A stretch of DNA of 64,000 nt, taken from Dictyostelium discoideum. Lineage: Eukaryota. The stretch lies in contig CM000150.2 in assembly GCA_000004695.1 (NCBI GenBank), positions 1,088,001 to 1,152,000 of the forward strand, in the 5' to 3' direction. Both the position numbers and the translations under genes were made by a program. The notes beneath the pieces were generated by a model. The model was not told where the DNA came from. It saw only the letters and a program-made list of their open reading frames with translations, and made no database searches. Shown one piece after another: positions 18,720 through 26,253 of this stretch. Within the stretch, counting starts at the first letter, position 1. Every line of letters begins with the position of its first letter.

Positions 18720-19072
18720 TTATAATAGACTTGTAGATTCAGATGAAGTATCAACCAATGGTTTATCATCATGTTGATCACTATTAATATAAAGGTTTTT
18801 TAATTGAAGTGATTTTGAATGTCTTTTAGCCAAACGAGCTCTAACTATTAAAATAATAACGAAAACTATGAATGAAAACAAGGCAACCGATGCAAACACT
18901 ATTAATGCAATTTCCCAAGCTTGTAATTGTAATCCTGGTGTATCATAAGCATTAATCATTAATTTAATCGTATAAGTTCCTAAAGATTCTATATCATTAA
19001 TTAATGATTGTTTTATTGTAATTGATAAATACATTGAATTACTTGAATAATTTATTAAATTTGATGGATTAA

Positions 19073-19111
<39 letters not shown>

Positions 19112-19889
19112 CATTTGAATTTAAAATTTTTAAATATGAATGACCAGGATTTATCTTTGAATTAAAGCTATAAATATCAGCTAAACTAAATAATAATAAT
19201 GAATGAGATTTCTGATCATTAACTAATATAGAATTTCTACTCTCTGAAATTTCCCATTTAATTGAATCCATATTATCATTTAAATTTGTTAATTCAAAAA
19301 TAATTTCAAAACTACCATTATTATTACCATTACTATTATTATTATTAATTAAATTTGTTGAATTTATAGTTGGTGAAATTGTAATTAAAGATGATGTTGA
19401 AGATTCAGGCATATATGAACCATGGTAATTTATAAAACTAAATGAAGAAGAAGAAGATTTTGAAGAGGATCCTCTATCAAAATAATCTACATTATAGTAT
19501 AAACCATTTAACCAACTACTTATATTTGAAGATATAAATGATAAACCAGTGATTGTTGATGTTTCATCAGTTATATATGAATTTGAAATATCAACTTGTT
19601 GAAAATTAGTTGATGATGGTGATTGTGATGATGATTGAGTAGCTAAAATATGTGAAATTTTAATATTAAAAATATCATTGGTTGTTGTAAATTTAAATTG
19701 ATTAAAATCAGTACCAGTTGGTAATGGTAATAAAGATTCATTCTTTACTTTATATGCACAATTGAATGATGCATACTCTTTATTACATCTACAAGTATTA
19801 CCAATATCACATTTACCATGATTTGCACAATCTTTTGGACATGAACTATTTACATAAAGATAATATGGGAAATTGATAGTATTGATTGA

Positions 19890-19970
<81 letters not shown>

Positions 19971-20333
19971 GTTGTTGTTATTGTTGTTATTTGTTATTCC
20001 TAAATATTGAATTGATACATTATAGAATTGATTAAAATTTATTGATGGTGAAGTTGTTGTTGCTAATTGTTGTTGTAATGAACAAGTTAATGATTCTTGA
20101 TTATTGTTGATATTAATATTTTCACATTGTAATGGTTTTATTCCTTCACCAACACTAAATGATATCGCTGTAATATTTCCCCTACAAAATGTACCTGTTA
20201 TTTCGATCGGGCTATCGGGATTATATGGATTAATTTCTGAAACTGTTAAAATTTCTGCTATACATAAATTATCACCTACTACAAATACATTTTGATAATA
20301 TAAAAACAATAATAATGTAATTAAAAATTTCAT
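18720..20333 (-). CDS. EGF-like domain type I membrane protein, paralog A (537 aa)
   Basis: ATG at 20333. Signal peptide MKFLITLLLFLYYQNVFVVG; EGF-like module CPKDCANHGKCDIGNTCRCNKEYASFNC; an in-frame (N)36 tract; one TM helix IALIVFASVALFSFIVFVIILIV followed by a basic stop-transfer RARLAKRH. About 40% identical to 24700..26253. Confidence 0.7.
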
Positions 20334-20409: not shown

Positions 20410-20773
20410 AGTTGGGGGTAAAAAAAAAAAAATAAAATAAAATAAAATAAAAATAAAAAAAAAAAAATCAAAATCAAAAAAAATAACAAATTATTACCCT
20501 GCACAGTTGTGTCACACTCTTGTGATTCCCCCGAAATGAAATAATAAAAAAATTAAAAAAATTAAAAAAATAAATTTTTTTTTTTTTTTGATTAGATTGT
20601 TATTTTAAAAATAAAATTAATCATTACCAAAAAAAAAAAAAAAAAAAAAAAAAAATGGGGAAGATATTAATAAAATAAAAAAATAAATAATTAATCAATT
20701 GACCCAACAATTTTTTAAATTACATTATTAAATTTTTTTAGACTGATCCAAATGGAATTTGAGTTTTTTTTTG

Positions 20774-20818
<45 letters not shown>

Positions 20819-20929: not shown

Positions 20930-22561
20930 TCAACTATCACTATCACCATCACTATCACTATCACTATCACTATCACTATCACAACATCCAAGGCAGTCAC
21001 TAGGACTTTTTAGTTTCCAATCTATTTTATTCTTTGATTGGTTATCTATTGATGATTTTAATAATCTTAATCGATTTTCACATATTGATCTGGTTTTACC
21101 GCCATCTATTCTTATTTTTTCTAGTGAATTTGAATGGAATTCCAAGATATTTTTAATAAATTTAATATTTTGATTTGTTGGACATCCATTCCAATCAGTA
21201 CAAAAACGAATTGAAAATCTTTTAATACCACCACCACCACAACCATTATCATTGACTAGATTTTTTAAAGTTTTGAAATTTGTTATTAATATATGTTGAA
21301 ATAAATCTTTATAATTTCTTTTAAATCCATAATAATGATCAATAGTAATACTTTGTAATGATGGCATTGGTGGTGGATAAATTAAGTATCTTGATGATTG
21401 GATACTTACTTGATAAAGATAAAGATATTCATCTTCATCTTCATCTTCATCATCCCCATAACCTTTAATATCTCTACTGATTCCACAATTTGTTGTTGAA
21501 TCATATTCATCACTTTCAATATAAAATGATTCGACTCTTGAGAATAACAATTCAATATATTCTCTACTACTTGAATATGGTATTAATCTAATTGATTCAT
21601 AATTGAAAAATAATGGTGGTTGTTTAATTAAACTGAATTCAGTAATATTGTTTAAATGAATCAATGGTTTGTTCCAATCAAAGTATTCATTATTTAATAT
21701 TTTTGATAATACTCTAAAGAATTGTTTACATACTAAAGCATATGATAATAAATTATAATTTAAAATAACATCATCATATGCAATTATATTATCTGCATAG
21801 GATAATGATTCTCTTACTATCTTTTTAACTATTATATCTGATAAAATAAAACATGGTTTATCTGTTTTCTTTTGGTGTGTCACTCTTCTCATTATTACAA
21901 ATTTGTGTGAATGTTTCAACAATTTCACCACCACCACCACCACCACCACCACCATCATGATAATCATGATCACTATATGCAATACTGAGTAAATTATCAA
22001 TATTATAATATTCTTTTTTTTTAAAAAATTCTGACATAATAAATAACCTTTTATCTAATTTATCCCTATCATTCTCGTATAAATTTTTAAACCAATCTTT
22101 AAACTTTAAAATATATAAATAAATTTGAAATTAATATTATCAATAATAATAAAAATAATAATAATATTATTAATAAAAAGAAAACTTACTTTTTTATCTC
22201 TAATGATTTTTAAATAAAGTTTATTATGAAAGTAAATTGAGTGGTAATTTGATTCATCAATATCTTCGATCTTACTAAAAATATTGAATGAGCTATCAAA
22301 GAATATATTTAAAATGAAATTCATATAGCCTTTTTTATCGAAATAATGAAAGAATTTAAATCTATGATAGCTGTTGAAATAATTAACAGCTTCAATTCTA
22401 ATTGATTTATTCTCTTTATGACTATCATAAATTCTTAAAACATCTATTAATCCAGAAAATGTTTTTGGTGTTTCTTTAATTGACTTTATTTTAATTTCTT
22501 CATTTGTTATTAATTCATCAACACTATTTTGTAGTTCTTCTCGTTTTCTTTTTTTTTCCAT
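20930..22561 (-). CDS. F-box-like uncharacterised protein, paralog A; 2 exons, with an internal frame break
   Basis: Exon 1 is 22561..22190 (MEKKRKREELQ..., donor AAA|GTAAGT). Exon 2 starts at 22103 (FKDWFKNLYEND...). An F-box-like motif ILSDIIVKKIVRESL...LLSYALVCKQFFRVL; Cys/Gly cluster CGGGGIKRF; C-terminal (DS)n. The conserved N- and C-terminal halves of exon 2 lie in different frames around a (GGT)9 tract at about 21920-21960. Confidence 0.5.
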
Positions 22562-22889
22562 TTAAAAAATTGATTGTATAATTTTTTAATTTTTCTTTTT
22601 TTTTTTTTTTTTTTTACAGGTGAATAATAATAAAATGGTGTTTTGGATTTGTATGGGTATCCCAAAAAAAAAATTCAACACCTAATTTTTTACGCAGAAG
22701 ATATTTTTTTTTTTTTTTTTTTAATTTAATTTAAACATAATGGAGTTAATATTAAATTCTTTTCAACTCATCAAAATAAAATTCCATTTGAATATTCTTA
22801 AAAAATTATAAAAAAAAATACAACTTTATGTCTAGATATTTATTATTATTCTTTTTTTTTTTTTTTAATATTTGTTTTGAAACCTTTGG

Positions 22890-24425
22890 TCATACTCTGT
22901 CAACTATCTTCCAATCTATTTTGTTCTTTGATTGCTTATTGATTGTTAAAATAATATCTTCAAAATGAACTGAACCTATATTATAAGCATCTAAACAATT
23001 AAATATAACTTTTTCCAATGTATTTGAATGGTTTTTTAAAATATCTACAATAAAACTAAGATCATAGTCTGGTTCTCCTTTCCAATCATTACAAAAGTGA
23101 ATTGAAAAATTTTTAATACCACCACATCCACCACATCCACCACCACAACTACCATCACCACCATCACCACCATTATCAAGTTTAGTAGTTTTAAAATTTT
23201 TTATTAATATATCTTTTAAAAAATTTTCATAGTTGCTTGAATATCCATAAAATGAATGAATTGATAAACTTTGTAATGATTGCATCATTGGTGGTAGTGA
23301 AATTAAATATCCAGATGACACAATTCCTTCTTTATAGGTATCATAATCATCATGATATTTTCTAATATCAACACCACATCTATATTCAGGAAATTCAAGA
23401 TCTCTAGAAAGTCCATCATATGATTCTATATCATGCTCATCAGTTTTAATATAAAATGATTGAACTCTTGAGAATAATAATTCTAAATATTCCCTACTAC
23501 TTGAATATGGTATTGATTTAACTAATTCATAATTAAAATGAAAAAATGAATTTCTATAAATATTGAATTCTTTATTATTTAAATATATGCATGCTTTCCA
23601 TTCAATACATTCATTATTTAATATATTTAATATTTTTAATAATACTTTAAAGAATTGTTTTGATACTAATGCTAATAATAATAAATTATCATTTTTAATA
23701 AATCCATCATCCATTCTTTCATCTTCAAATAAATAATTTCTAACTATCTCATTAATTATTATATCTGGTAAATAAAAATTTTTCATTTGTAAATGTACAC
23801 TACTATCCTCACTACAATTATGACTATTATTTTTATTATTTATTGAGGAATTATTATTATTATTGTTATTATTATTATTTTTGTTGTTGTTTTCACCATA
23901 TGCAATACTATGTAAAGTATCGATTTCATAATGTTTGGTTAATACTGAACGTGTTTTCATAGTTGCTAGAATTCTTTCTAATCGATCCATATCATTTTCA
24001 TATAAATTTTTAAACCAATTTTTAAACTATTAAAATTTAAACATGTTTGAATTAATGATAAAAACCATTTAAATAAAAATAAAAATAATAATAATAATAA
24101 TAATAATAATATAAATAATAATGATAAATCCCTTACTCTTATCATTTATTATTTTTTCATAAAGTATAAATTTAATATAAGTGGAAGAAATAATATCAAA
24201 AATTTCCGCAAAAACAAATTCAGAAGTATCAAAAAATACATTTAGAATGAAATTTGTATACCCATTTTCATCTATGTAATGAAGATTCAATTCTAATAGA
24301 TTCATTCTCTTTGTATTTGTCATAAATTCTTAAAACATCAATTAATCCTAACAATGTTTTTGGTGTTTCTATTATTGATTCTGAAATTTTATCTATATCT
24401 ATTTCAATCTCTTTATTGTTTGTCA
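22890..24425 (-). CDS. F-box-like uncharacterised protein, paralog B; frame breaks in exon 1 relative to paralog A (possible pseudogene)
   Basis: Exon 2 is 24026..22890 (FKNWFKNLYENDMDRLER...F-box-like YLPDIIINEIVRNYL...LLALVSKQFFKVL...CGGGCGGCGG) and is intact. Exon 1 homology (MTNNKEIEIDIDKISESIIETPKTLLGLIDVLRIYDKYKENESIRIE at 24425..) shifts frame at about 24300 and again at the donor, where GATAAGA|GTAAGG replaces GATAAAAAA|GTAAGT. Confidence 0.4.
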
Positions 24426-24699
24426 TTTTTAAACTTTTTTTAAAAAAAAAAAAAAAATAATCAAAGTCAAAAAAACGAGTTTTAAGGGTGCAAAGATAAA
24501 TTTTTTTTTTTTTTGAAATATAATTAAATCAAATGTGGTTTGTGTGAAATATATAATTTTTTTTTTATATTTTATTTAGTGCTCTTTTGTGATTTATATA
24601 AAAATAAAAAAATAAAAAAAAAAAAAATAAAGATTTTTCGATAATATTTAATATTTATTTATTATTTTATTTTATTTTATTTTTTTTTCATAAAATTAA

Positions 24700-26253
24700 T
24701 TAATGAAGTAATGGTTTACTTTCATCATTATTTTTATTATTGTGATGATGATGATGATGATTATTATTTTCTTCAGAATTATTTACACTTAAATTTTTAA
24801 GTTGTCTCTTTTTTCTAATTATAAGAACCAGTATGAATAAAACAAAAGCAAAACTTGCAACTGCACCAACGATAATTAAAGCGATTGCCCATTCAGGGAA
24901 TTTAAGAGTTGAATAATTATAAGCATTAATTGCAAATTGAACTTGATAAGTACCAGTACTATTATTTAATTGCTGTTGTTGTTGTGGAATAACAATTGAA
25001 AGATAAACTGAATCAACTGAATAAGTTGACTCTGTTGAAGTAGTGTCAGTTGATGAATGATTTAATAATTTTAATATTTCATCATTTGATAGTAGTCTTA
25101 AATGAGCATGATTTGGTACAATTGATTGATTAAAACAATAAATATCTGATAAACTAAATAAAATCAATGAATTTGTTTTCTTATTATTAAAAAGTATTGA
25201 ATTATTCGTATCTGATATCTCCCATGAAACAGAATACATATCATTGTTTGAATTTTCAATTTGTAATATCATTTCAAAAGTTGTACCATTACCATTACCA
25301 TTATTTAAAAGGTATTGAGTATTTATAGTTGGTTCAATTAAAATTTGTGATGAAACTGATGAGATTGGTAAATAAGCACCATGATAATTTATAAATTTAT
25401 TTAAAGTACTATTACTATTTTTTGAATAATTTGCCATATATTTAATTGTATTTAACCAACTATTCTCATTAACAATCGTTGAAAATGATAACCCATTTGA
25501 TGTTTCATTTTTATCAATTATATTTGAATCTATAATATCTTGTTGTTGATATGTTGATGATGACGATGATGATGATGATGATGTTAAAACACTTTGTAAT
25601 TTAATATTAAAAATATCATTTCTCGTTACCATTGCAAATGTTGAATAATCAATACCAACTGGTAATGATAATGCATCATTTGTAATCTTATGAGAACAAT
25701 CAAATGATGCATATCCTTCATTACATAAACAAGTACTACCAATACTACAAACACCATGATCTTTACATTTCCCTGGACATGATTGATTTGTATAAAGGTA
25801 AGTATTCGATCCTAATACTCTAACTGGTGATATTGATAATGTACTACTGCTACCACTACTACTACTATCACTATCACTATCATCTGGTATTGGAATTGGT
25901 GTTTTAATAAATACTGTATTAAATTGATTGAAATTAAAAGTAGTTGATTGATTTTTATCTAAACCGAAATTAATTGTACATGATATAATTTGACTAAGTG
26001 GATCAATTGTTGGATCGTCACAAGAATAAATTATATTACTACCTGATAATGTCATTGAAATTTGAACACCTGTTGTATTATATAAACAAAATTCACCTAC
26101 AATTTGAACTTTTGCATTTGATTCGAATGGATTAACCTCTGAAATACTTGAAACATATTGTTTACATTCAGAGGATGATGTTGTAGATAAATATTCATAA
26201 CTAAAACATTTATTTAAATAAATTATAAAAAATAAAAATGAAATAATTTTCAT
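24700..26253 (-). CDS. EGF-like domain type I membrane protein, paralog B (517 aa)
   Basis: ATG at 26253. Signal peptide; CPGKCKDHGVCSIGSTCLCNEGYASFDC EGF-like module; TM IALIIVGAVASFAFVLFILVLII plus RKKRQ; His-rich C-terminal tail. Collinear with 18720..20333. Confidence 0.7.
   Translation of the reverse strand: MKIISFLFFIIYLNKCFSYEYLSTTSSSECKQYVSSISEVNPFESNAKVQIVGEFCLYNTTGVQISMTLSGSNIIYSCDDPTIDPLSQIISCTINFGLDKNQSTTFNFNQFNTVFIKTPIPIPDDSDSDSSSSGSSSTLSISPVRVLGSNTYLYTNQSCPGKCKDHGVCSIGSTCLCNEGYASFDCSHKITNDALSLPVGIDYSTFAMVTRNDIFNIKLQSVLTSSSSSSSSSTYQQQDIIDSNIIDKNETSNGLSFSTIVNENSWLNTIKYMANYSKNSNSTLNKFINYHGAYLPISSVSSQILIEPTINTQYLLNNGNGNGTTFEMILQIENSNNDMYSVSWEISDTNNSILFNNKKTNSLILFSLSDIYCFNQSIVPNHAHLRLLSNDEILKLLNHSSTDTTSTESTYSVDSVYLSIVIPQQQQQLNNSTGTYQVQFAINAYNYSTLKFPEWAIALIIVGAVASFAFVLFILVLIIRKKRQLKNLSVNNSEENNNHHHHHHNNKNNDESKPLLH

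Follow-up and report, generated by a model that had tools for sequence, protein, structure and literature searches.

Unrelated frame breaks in two old Dictyostelium discoideum F-box/LRR-like paralogues: a likely error in the AX4 reference and two deletions in the laboratory lineage

The window analyzed here, a stretch of 64,000 nt from chromosome 1 of Dictyostelium discoideum AX4, carries two F-box/leucine-rich-repeat-like paralogues on the minus strand, gene A (DDB_G0268388) and gene B (DDB_G0268390), and the reading frame of each is interrupted. We consider it highly probable that these are two old dictyostelid tandem paralogues with unrelated breaks, gene A being an intact gene with a likely error in the reference and gene B a copy with genuine deletions of the laboratory lineage. 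The apparent frameshift of gene A comes from one extra C:G pair confined to the AX4 reference, and the gene itself would be intact and encode 514 aa. Gene B has lost 38 and 2 nt on the branch from which the NC4-derived laboratory strains descend; as a result, its ancestral start codon and N-terminal domain are cut off from the remaining open reading frame (ORF), whereas it is intact in wild isolates.

A tblastn search of the whole window recovered these two minus-strand copies and no third one, in agreement with the first-pass annotation, which had described two F-box-like paralogs. The window was compared with GCA_054883475.1 (ACTFIT_ tags), a de novo assembly from Nanopore plus Illumina reads, and with the wild isolates ACTFIW, ACTFIR, and ACTFIZ, in which the loci were located via the genes neighboring A and B. 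The near-identity of the ACTFIT assembly to AX4, together with the strain list in PMC12745789, suggests that it is probably the AX2-214 of that study. Over 9.27 kb of alignment, the window and GCA_054883475.1 differed only at intergenic homopolymer runs and at one coding base, 21875. Homology searches missed the A and B proteins of the wild strains because their exact sequences were absent from the protein collection. Family copies in ACTFIR and in D. firmibasis were also found at loci not syntenic with the window. A literature search with three DDB_G identifiers returned no paper, and one on the handling of sequencing errors by dictyBase returned nothing relevant.

An extra base in exon 2 of gene A

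Exon 1 of gene A (22190..22561, minus strand) comprises 124 codons that are open from the ATG at 22561 to the donor, as had been stated from the first reading, and is identical in translation to residues 1–124 of both the 491-aa database model and the 514-aa protein annotated in the ACTFIT assembly; its product forms most of the N-terminal helical-repeat domain. It is followed by a genuine GT-AG intron (22104..22189, minus strand; GTAAGT...AAG, 86 nt, 7% GC), the position of which is conserved among the wild-strain orthologues. Exon 2 (20930..22103, minus strand, including the TGA stop at 20932–20930) becomes a single ORF once one C of the CC at 21875–21874 is dropped. At this site (21874..21875, minus strand), the gene strand reads GACACA[CC]AAAAG and the plus strand GG, while a single C stands in all four other assemblies (ACTFIT, ACTFIW, ACTFIR, and ACTFIZ) in both pairwise and multiple alignments. 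Owing to the extra C, the upstream frame runs into a premature TAA (21858..21860, minus strand). When the extra C was removed, the conceptual protein was exactly the annotated 514-aa ACTFIT_008584.

The first-pass annotation had described a frame change across the (GGT)9 tract of exon 2 (21927..21953, minus strand), which encodes poly-Gly. The frame does change, but not in the tract: it is maintained through (GGT)9 plus 17 further codons, and the extra C:G pair lies 52 nt 3ʹ of the tract. A break inside the tract was rejected, as the frame is conserved through it in the alignments; the tract length differs by strain, from about (GGT)2 in ACTFIW to about (GGT)15 in ACTFIR. An alternative acceptor 7 nt downstream was also rejected, since it runs into a stop. 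Between AX4 A and ACTFIW A, all coding indels were multiples of 3 (8/8).

The 491-aa database model of DDB_G0268388 deals with the break in another way. Reconstruction from this protein revealed an 'intron 2' of 70 nt (21829..21898, minus strand), by which automated annotation evidently bridged the frameshift. If such an intron were real, it would belong to a broader explanation, namely, that both breaks are mended after transcription, either by removal of small introns or through recoding, for instance programmed frameshifting, so that full-length proteins are made from the sequence as it is. We regard this as extremely improbable. The model of A does use an intron of this kind, with canonical GT...AG ends, and the first-pass annotation had likewise raised additional small introns that would repair the frames. 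However, the segment has an exon-like GC content of 27%, compared to 7% in the true intron, and it is a continuous, uninterrupted ORF in the four other assemblies. The residues encoded there, KPCFILSDII, are conserved family-wide and start the F-box-like motif, and removal of the segment drops ...CNNEKSDTQKKTDKPCFILSDII..., which is conserved in all orthologues. An intron that has the composition of an exon and deletes conserved residues is not credible.

As the extra C was seen in none of the four other assemblies, we infer that an error in base calling or assembly of the 2005 AX4 reference is its most likely origin, a private AX4 mutation being less likely. The AX4 reference was built from about 8x Sanger coverage, and the mutation rate of D. 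discoideum is very low; on these grounds, the prior odds strongly favor an error over a laboratory-acquired indel in the 1.5-kb gene A. The opposite reading, in which the extra C is a genuine frameshift from the AX3/AX4 laboratory lineage, gene A is a brand-new AX4 pseudogene, and AX4 holds two decaying copies, is unlikely. In its favor, the extra C stands in the deposited reference, the loss of family members is evidently tolerated (the laboratory lineage has a crippled B, and A is a pseudogene with multiple lesions in the wild strain ACTFIR), and the dN/dS of gene A, 0.75–0.83, was not significantly below 1. Yet the near-identical laboratory-strain assembly lacks the extra C, and the remaining differences between the two assemblies across the 9.27 kb all map to intergenic homopolymer runs or their immediate flanks, a pattern typical of sequencing noise and not of mutation. 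A homopolymer or microsatellite error had been put forward in the first reading as a possible cause of the breaks. A sequencing error is indeed the likeliest cause for gene A, although what changed is C to CC within CACAC, outside the microsatellite, and it is not the cause for gene B. Exact-protein look-ups in Logan and other assemblies left the AX4-specific 59-aa ORF of A, the genomic 151-aa exon 1 ORF of A, and the 366-aa ORF of B unmatched.

Deletions in exon 1 of gene B

The ancestral exon 1 of gene B (24137..24426, minus strand, 290 nt) is disabled: the ATG at 24426 opens an ORF of 52 codons that ends at the TGA at 24270–24268. Alignments with ACTFIW, ACTFIR, and ACTFIZ placed a 38-nt deletion at the junction 24285..24286 (minus strand), where TCAACAGCTTATTTCAATGAATATCATCAAAATAAATT was lost, with a 2-bp TC microhomology at its ends. 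The lost residues (STAYFNEYHQNKF) fit the family consensus, which indicates that the AX4 state is derived. A '+1 shift near 24300' had been described earlier; the frame does switch here, near 24285, but the lesion is this 38-nt deletion between 24286 and 24285. The second lesion is a deletion of 2 nt (AA) immediately before the donor (24137..24142, minus strand), where the sequence reads GATAAGA/GT, compared to GATAAAAGA/GT in the wild strains (by codon, GAT AAG A/GTAAGG against GAT AAA AGA/GTAAGG in the intact wild orthologues). The donor region that had been noted as 2 nt shorter is thus shorter by that amount when set against these orthologues. Mutual compensation of the two lesions was rejected, as they add up to 40 nt (38 + 2), which is not a multiple of 3, and the stop is met 5 codons past the first lesion.

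Downstream of the donor lie a 110-nt intron (24027..24136, minus strand; GTAAGG...TAATAG) and exon 2 (22890..24026, minus strand). The latter consists of 378 open codons (1134 nt) plus the stop at 22892–22890 and encodes the F-box-like motif (23777–23628) and an LRR-like domain, so the earlier description of this exon as intact was correct. All coding indels between exon 2 and its wild orthologue were multiples of 3.

Both deletions were identical in the window and in GCA_054883475.1, that is, in both laboratory-strain assemblies, and both were absent at the syntenic position from ACTFIW, ACTFIR, and ACTFIZ, in which exon 1 is intact. The wild gene B ORF encodes 509 aa in ACTFIW and 533 aa in ACTFIR; in ACTFIZ, the locus ends after codon 4 of the copy. 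In the spliced laboratory allele, the ATG at 24426 gives 52 aa, and the ATG at 24323, which had been suggested as a shorter start, gives 63 aa only, owing to the 2-nt donor deletion. The only start that reaches exon 2 in frame is the ATG of the annotated 381-aa model (24143..24145, minus strand), which lies in a mini-exon encoding 'MIR' and has 8 ATGs upstream of it in the ancestral exon 1. These features also argue against repair of gene B at the RNA level: its 38 nt are simply missing, splicing of the sole GT-AG intron joins exon 1b to exon 2 in the wrong phase, and the products of all ATGs upstream of 24145 are 63 aa or shorter in the spliced transcript.

With frame-disrupting lesions relative to intact syntenic orthologues, reproduced in GCA_054883475.1, gene B in the NC4-derived laboratory strains is most likely a very young unitary pseudogene and at best an N-terminally truncated allele. 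The truncated allele deserves serious weight, although we hold it to be the less probable of the two. Gene B would then be alive, and its protein of 381 aa (from the ATG at 24145) or 366 aa (from the ATG at 23990) would keep the F-box-like motif and the LRR domain. The 378 codons of exon 2 are still open, and the indels against the wild orthologue preserve the frame throughout. On the AX4 branch, exon 2 outside the poly-Asn tract shows 4 non-synonymous codons versus 5 synonymous changes, and these few counts give no sign of neutral decay; the pairwise dN/dS of this exon was 0.43–0.60. Both disabling lesions fall within the 290-nt exon 1, which makes up just some 20% of the coding length, and the 1134 nt of exon 2 are free of them, a clustering that mildly favors a truncated product still in use. 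Further, the 381-aa sequence alone gave a confident LRR-like model (pLDDT 73.6).

However, a transcript from the ancestral promoter contains the 8 ATGs before 24145, including those of the 52-codon and 63-codon ORFs, so the long ORF should be translated inefficiently and the mRNA may face nonsense-mediated decay. Conservation of the N-terminal domain extends to every full-length member, as far back as Heterostelium, so the domain is probably needed. Moreover, so little divergence has accumulated on the AX4 branch that a young pseudogene would also show an open exon 2. We therefore favor a very young pseudogene, with loss of function as its probable outcome.

Age of the family and use of the alleles

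A and B share 46%–48% amino-acid identity, and each is as close or closer to members from D. firmibasis and D. citrinum than to the other copy. Judging by these comparisons, A and B are old paralogues, and the family is not young. The first-pass annotation had offered 'two decaying pseudogenes of a young family' as one explanation. The part on decay appears to hold for B, the lesions of which were reproduced in an assembly of the same lineage, but not for A, the lesion of which is private to the AX4 reference, and the part on youth fails. A search of 1.84 billion proteins yielded 49 family representatives at 50% identity. All matches that carry a source name are dictyostelid, while most of the 49 representatives are without one; on this sampling, the family appears to be restricted to dictyostelids.

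The family evolves fast, with dN/dS of 0.4–0.8, and, at a second locus, ACTFIR has an additional cluster of 3 family copies that lack a counterpart among AX4 proteins. Taken together with the crippling of B in the NC4 lineage and the death of A in ACTFIR, this cluster could hint that the members are conflict-type SCF-like receptors, the copy content of which is polymorphic within D. discoideum through diversifying or balancing selection rather than plain decay. This dN/dS, found although intact copies strictly keep their reading frames, points the same way. We nevertheless think this improbable. Kin or cheater interactions and defence against symbionts or pathogens are examples of settings for receptors of this type.

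The value of these results is mainly curatorial. DDB_G0268388 should be a two-exon gene of 514 aa, as the 491-aa model loses part of the F-box-like motif, and DDB_G0268390 merits a flag as an N-terminally disrupted allele specific to NC4-derived laboratory strains. AX2 and AX4 would be natural (near-)nulls for one family member, which could matter for functional study of the family. Otherwise, the case is a routine one, a probable reference error alongside a probable lineage-specific pseudogenization (ordinary gene decay) in a fast-evolving gene family.

Domain architecture and comparison with known systems

From the N- to the C-terminus, family members consist of a helical-repeat domain, a weak F-box-like motif, and an LRR domain of the RNI type. 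In gene A, the motif (21695..21850, minus strand) reads FILSDIIVKKIVRESL ... LLSYALVCKQFFRVLSKIL. The AF2 model of gene A (pLDDT 78.9, pTM 0.80) shows helices at residues 211–223, 242–246, and 250–262 in this region, ahead of the LRR-like domain, and a C-terminal RNI-like LRR solenoid of the FBXL type is present. Curated profiles (PF00646 and PF12937) gave no match at threshold. The Pfam scan of the conceptual A and B proteins gave nothing at E ≤ 1, and scans of 12 plus 8 family members gave F-box matches below threshold only: PF00646 matched 2 of 12 members at 15.7 bits (E 0.015) and 13.4 bits (E 0.077), under the 20.5-bit cut-off, on the ALVSKQFF segment. A profile search of PDB sequences returned nothing at E ≤ 5, and a Foldseek search of the PDB with the complete gene A model returned nothing below E 0.26. 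The F-box assignment, with a putative role in Skp1 binding as an SCF substrate receptor, is thus weak.

Compared with known FBXL receptors (such as FBXL3, FBXL2, Skp2, MAX2/D3, and COI1), the family is similar in having the motif L-[SP]-D-I-I-x-x-I ... L-x-x-A-L-V-[SC]-K-Q-F directly before an alpha/beta repeat domain, and several members carry the name 'F-box domain-containing protein' in UniProt, a label given by that source. It differs in that no member attains the Pfam F-box threshold, Phe replaces the canonical Trp of the motif, and a variable insertion separates helix 1 from helix 2. A conserved helical-repeat domain of ~120–150 aa also precedes the motif, which is not a feature of FBXL proteins.

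Gene A resembles known cases in which base errors of a reference are masked by frame-fixing introns, since one old Sanger assembly alone shows the discrepancy and the gene model contains a short 'intron' of exon-like composition at the cost of conserved residues. Such errors are commonest at long homopolymers or microsatellites, whereas the site in gene A is a C/CC difference in CACAC. Gene B resembles unitary polymorphic pseudogenes in that small deletions disrupt its frame in one lineage while its syntenic orthologues in other isolates are intact, and gene A, which is dead in the wild strain ACTFIR, is the mirror case. Gene B departs from that class in that its long exon 2 is still open and a model is annotated for it; a complete loss of its function is thus probable rather than observed.

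Frame disruption and annotated intron of gene A

The window, with a GC content of 15-33% by base composition, was searched by tblastn with nine family proteins as queries, and exactly two family copies were found. Homology searches assigned the window to chromosome 1 of Dictyostelium discoideum AX4 and identified the two copies as the minus-strand genes DDB_G0268388 (gene A), annotated with 491 aa (database protein P0005), and DDB_G0268390 (gene B), annotated with 381 aa (database protein P0001). Six-frame translation, ORF listing and tblastn frames largely confirmed the first-pass annotation, which had described the two paralogues as carrying frame breaks, but the break in A had been misplaced. 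By sequence reading, exon 1 of A runs from the ATG at 22561 to 22190, followed by an 86-nt GT-AG intron (22189-22104, 7% GC) and by exon 2 (22103-20930), which ends in a TGA at 20932-20930. The homology in exon 2 follows one frame to about 21870, with a premature TAA next at 21860-21858, and keeps to a second frame for the rest of the exon. This switch, said to lie across the (GGT)9 tract at 21953-21927, is real in the window sequence, but the frame is intact through the tract and the conserved EIVETFTQICNNEKSDT after it, and the extra base is located 52 nt 3ʹ of the tract.

The same locus was retrieved from an independent assembly, GCA_054883475.1 (ACTFIT), by exact-protein look-up of P0001. 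Over 9,274 aligned columns, the two sequences differed in intergenic homopolymer lengths, two substitutions beside such runs and one coding base, where the gene strand reads GACACACCAAAAG in the window and GACACACAAAAG in ACTFIT, the window having one C more at 21875/21874. When this C was removed, A became a continuous ORF of 514 aa, identical to the annotated ACTFIT_008584. Alignments revealed the single C in ACTFIW, ACTFIR and ACTFIZ as well, so that only the reference has the second one. These sequences are most economically read as showing a wrong base call in the Sanger reference of 2005; less probably, the private base would be a mutation of AX4 itself. When A of AX4 was compared with A of ACTFIW, all eight coding indels were multiples of three, which indicates selection for frame retention. 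The other sites at which the AX4 reference and ACTFIT differ (22615, 20834, 20806-20817, 20652-20655 and 20407) all fall within long intergenic A/T homopolymers or next to them, and sequencing noise in either assembly, or in both, is the probable cause.

P0005 reads ...ETFTQI/FKKIVRESL..., corresponding to the removal of 21898-21829 (70 nt, GT...AG). The GC content of this segment was 27%, compared to 26% in the surrounding exon and 7% in the true intron. It codes for CNNEKSDTQKKTDKPCFILSDII, the second half of which is the conserved start of the F-box-like motif of the family. Judged from the sequence, the annotated "intron" is a frame-fixing artefact.

Two deletions in gene B

In gene B, also on the minus strand, the frame opened by the family-type ATG at 24426 is closed after 52 codons by a TGA at 24270-24268, and the homology resumes in another frame from about 24284. 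The phase of the donor, with its G at 24136, does not match that of the acceptor of exon 2, which begins at 24026 and has 378 open codons before the stop at 22892-22890.

Homology searches returned no wild-strain orthologues of A or B, and the wild-strain loci were found via the genes next to them. ACTFIW_007724 is the orthologue of the EGF-like gene that lies upstream of B, in a locus (L005, GCA_054859355.1) syntenic with the window, and the SET-domain neighbours led to ACTFIR (GCA_054859385.1) and ACTFIZ ('D. cf. discoideum', GCA_054859235.1). These assemblies stem from a project in which AX2-214 and nine wild isolates were assembled de novo from Nanopore plus Illumina data (PMC12745789); ACTFIT is most probably AX2-214, given its virtual identity to AX4.

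At the 24286/24285 junction, the window lacks a stretch of 38 nt in exon 1 of B (TCAACAGCTTATTTCAATGAATATCATCAAAATAAATT) that ACTFIW, ACTFIR and ACTFIZ have. A frame break in exon 1 had thus been seen correctly, but it is this deletion rather than a +1 shift near 24300. The donor region was rightly described as 2 nt shorter, since the three strains have two more A's (GATAAAAGA/GTAAGG) than the window (GATAAGA/GTAAGG). B is intact with two exons in ACTFIW (509 aa) and ACTFIR (533 aa), and likewise uninterrupted in ACTFIZ, where the first four codons lie beyond the locus end. The lost residues (STAYFNEYHQNKF) fit the family consensus, which makes the deleted form in AX4 the derived one. ACTFIT has the same two deletions, so they are not sequencing errors and are older than the AX2/AX4 split; as they total 40 nt, they do not compensate each other.

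After splicing, the ATG at 24426 yields 52 aa and the one at 24323, proposed as a shorter start, only 63 aa. P0001 starts from the ATG at 24145, with a three-codon mini-exon (MIR) joined to exon 2, and the whole N-terminal domain is lost. Eight upstream ATGs precede this only productive start, and the N-terminal domain is kept in the family back to Heterostelium; both points tilt the sequence evidence modestly towards loss of function of B, leaving a working truncated protein somewhat less probable.

Selection was assessed by dN/dS (Nei-Gojobori, near-gap columns excluded), a proposed check for relaxed constraint. For A, dN/dS was 0.75-0.83 at dS 0.07-0.16, not significantly below 1; for B it was 0.61-0.79 among intact copies and, in exon 2 of AX4 versus wild strains, 0.43-0.60. 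On the AX4 branch of exon 2 (outgroup ACTFIZ), 5 nucleotide changes were synonymous and 21 non-synonymous; the poly-Asn tract, whose alignment is not reliable, accounts for 10 of the 14 non-synonymous codons, leaving 4 against 5 synonymous changes outside it. These counts give no sign of long neutral decay, and either the lesions would be recent or exon 2 would still be in use.

Family and strain variation

Among 1.84 billion representatives, a profile search retrieved a family of 49 proteins, most without a source name; all source-named matches were dictyostelid (Dictyostelium or Heterostelium). A and B share 46-48% identity, and a neighbour-joining tree and identities place each as close to members from D. 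firmibasis, D. citrinum and D. dimigraforme as to the other. They are old paralogues, which contradicts a young family. No Pfam domain reached threshold in the family proteins scanned, and sub-threshold F-box matches were limited to two Heterostelium members, over the ALVSKQFF segment. Neither a PDB sequence profile search nor Foldseek returned a match, and the AlphaFold2 model of A (36-sequence alignment) was confident (pLDDT 78.9, pTM 0.80). As an account of the proteins' probable mode of action, 'F-box-like plus LRR' is reasonable, with membership of the F-box family not established.

A third AX4 member outside the window, DDB_G0268096 (375 aa), is annotated without the N-terminal domain, compared to a full-length model (ACTFIT_008700, 517 aa) in the near-identical lab-strain assembly, which may reflect another AX4 model or sequence problem. 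Two D. firmibasis proteins (RB653_007546 and RB653_007291; 658 and 633 aa) comprise one full copy and part of a neighbour copy, and are likely fusions of tandem genes.

The A orthologue of ACTFIR (locus L006, 5778-7460), annotated as a 454-aa protein, is a pseudogene with several lesions: it lacks 2 nt directly after its (GGT)15 tract and 33+6 nt in the F-box-like core, where there is also an in-frame stop, and a further deletion removes 16 nt. At a second locus, non-syntenic with the window (L003, 4816-11744), ACTFIR carries three family copies in tandem (480, 563 and 531 aa), with a dihydropyrimidine-dehydrogenase-like gene on one side and a CH-domain gene on the other. These copies have orthologues in ACTFIW, and no AX4/AX2 database protein clustered with them. 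The pseudogene and the extra copies indicate that functional copy content varies among strains, typical of the birth-and-death behaviour of a fast-evolving family.

Coding triplet repeats differ strongly in length among strains, always in threes (21927-21953, 23150-23200 and 23830-23890): (GGT)n of A has 9 units in AX4, 2 in ACTFIW and 15 in ACTFIR, and the poly-Gly/Asp and poly-Asn tracts of B behave likewise. In ACTFIZ, an insert of about 3.5 kb with ORFs on both strands lies between B and A (L007, 1700-5270); one 190-aa ORF resembles a DDE-type transposase by eye, and part of the insert is annotated with A as a fused 843-aa model. The wild isolates have two SET-domain genes in tandem (L005, 18052-21572; L006, 10001-14241; L007, 10001-14449), both aligning at 72-85% protein identity to the single AX4 gene, DDB_G0268386 (16198-18228, minus strand). 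A and B are bracketed by a second minus-strand paralogue pair (24700-26253 and 18720-20333), whose EGF-like products (517 and 537 aa) have a signal peptide and a single TM segment and share 36% identity (E 3e-81); the gene-strand order EGF-like, B, A, EGF-like is not that of a two-gene unit simply duplicated in tandem.

The breaks look 'reciprocal' only by coincidence, as they have nothing to do with each other: in A, a probable reference error masked by a false intron; in B, a genuine, young, strain-specific disruption. Sequencing error, offered earlier for both genes, is likely for A but not for B, and of the two suspected pseudogenes only B carries lesions that AX4 and ACTFIT share. There is nothing mechanistically new here: annotations exist for both genes, GenBank already has the corrected A protein through another assembly, and the value of the result lies in curation.
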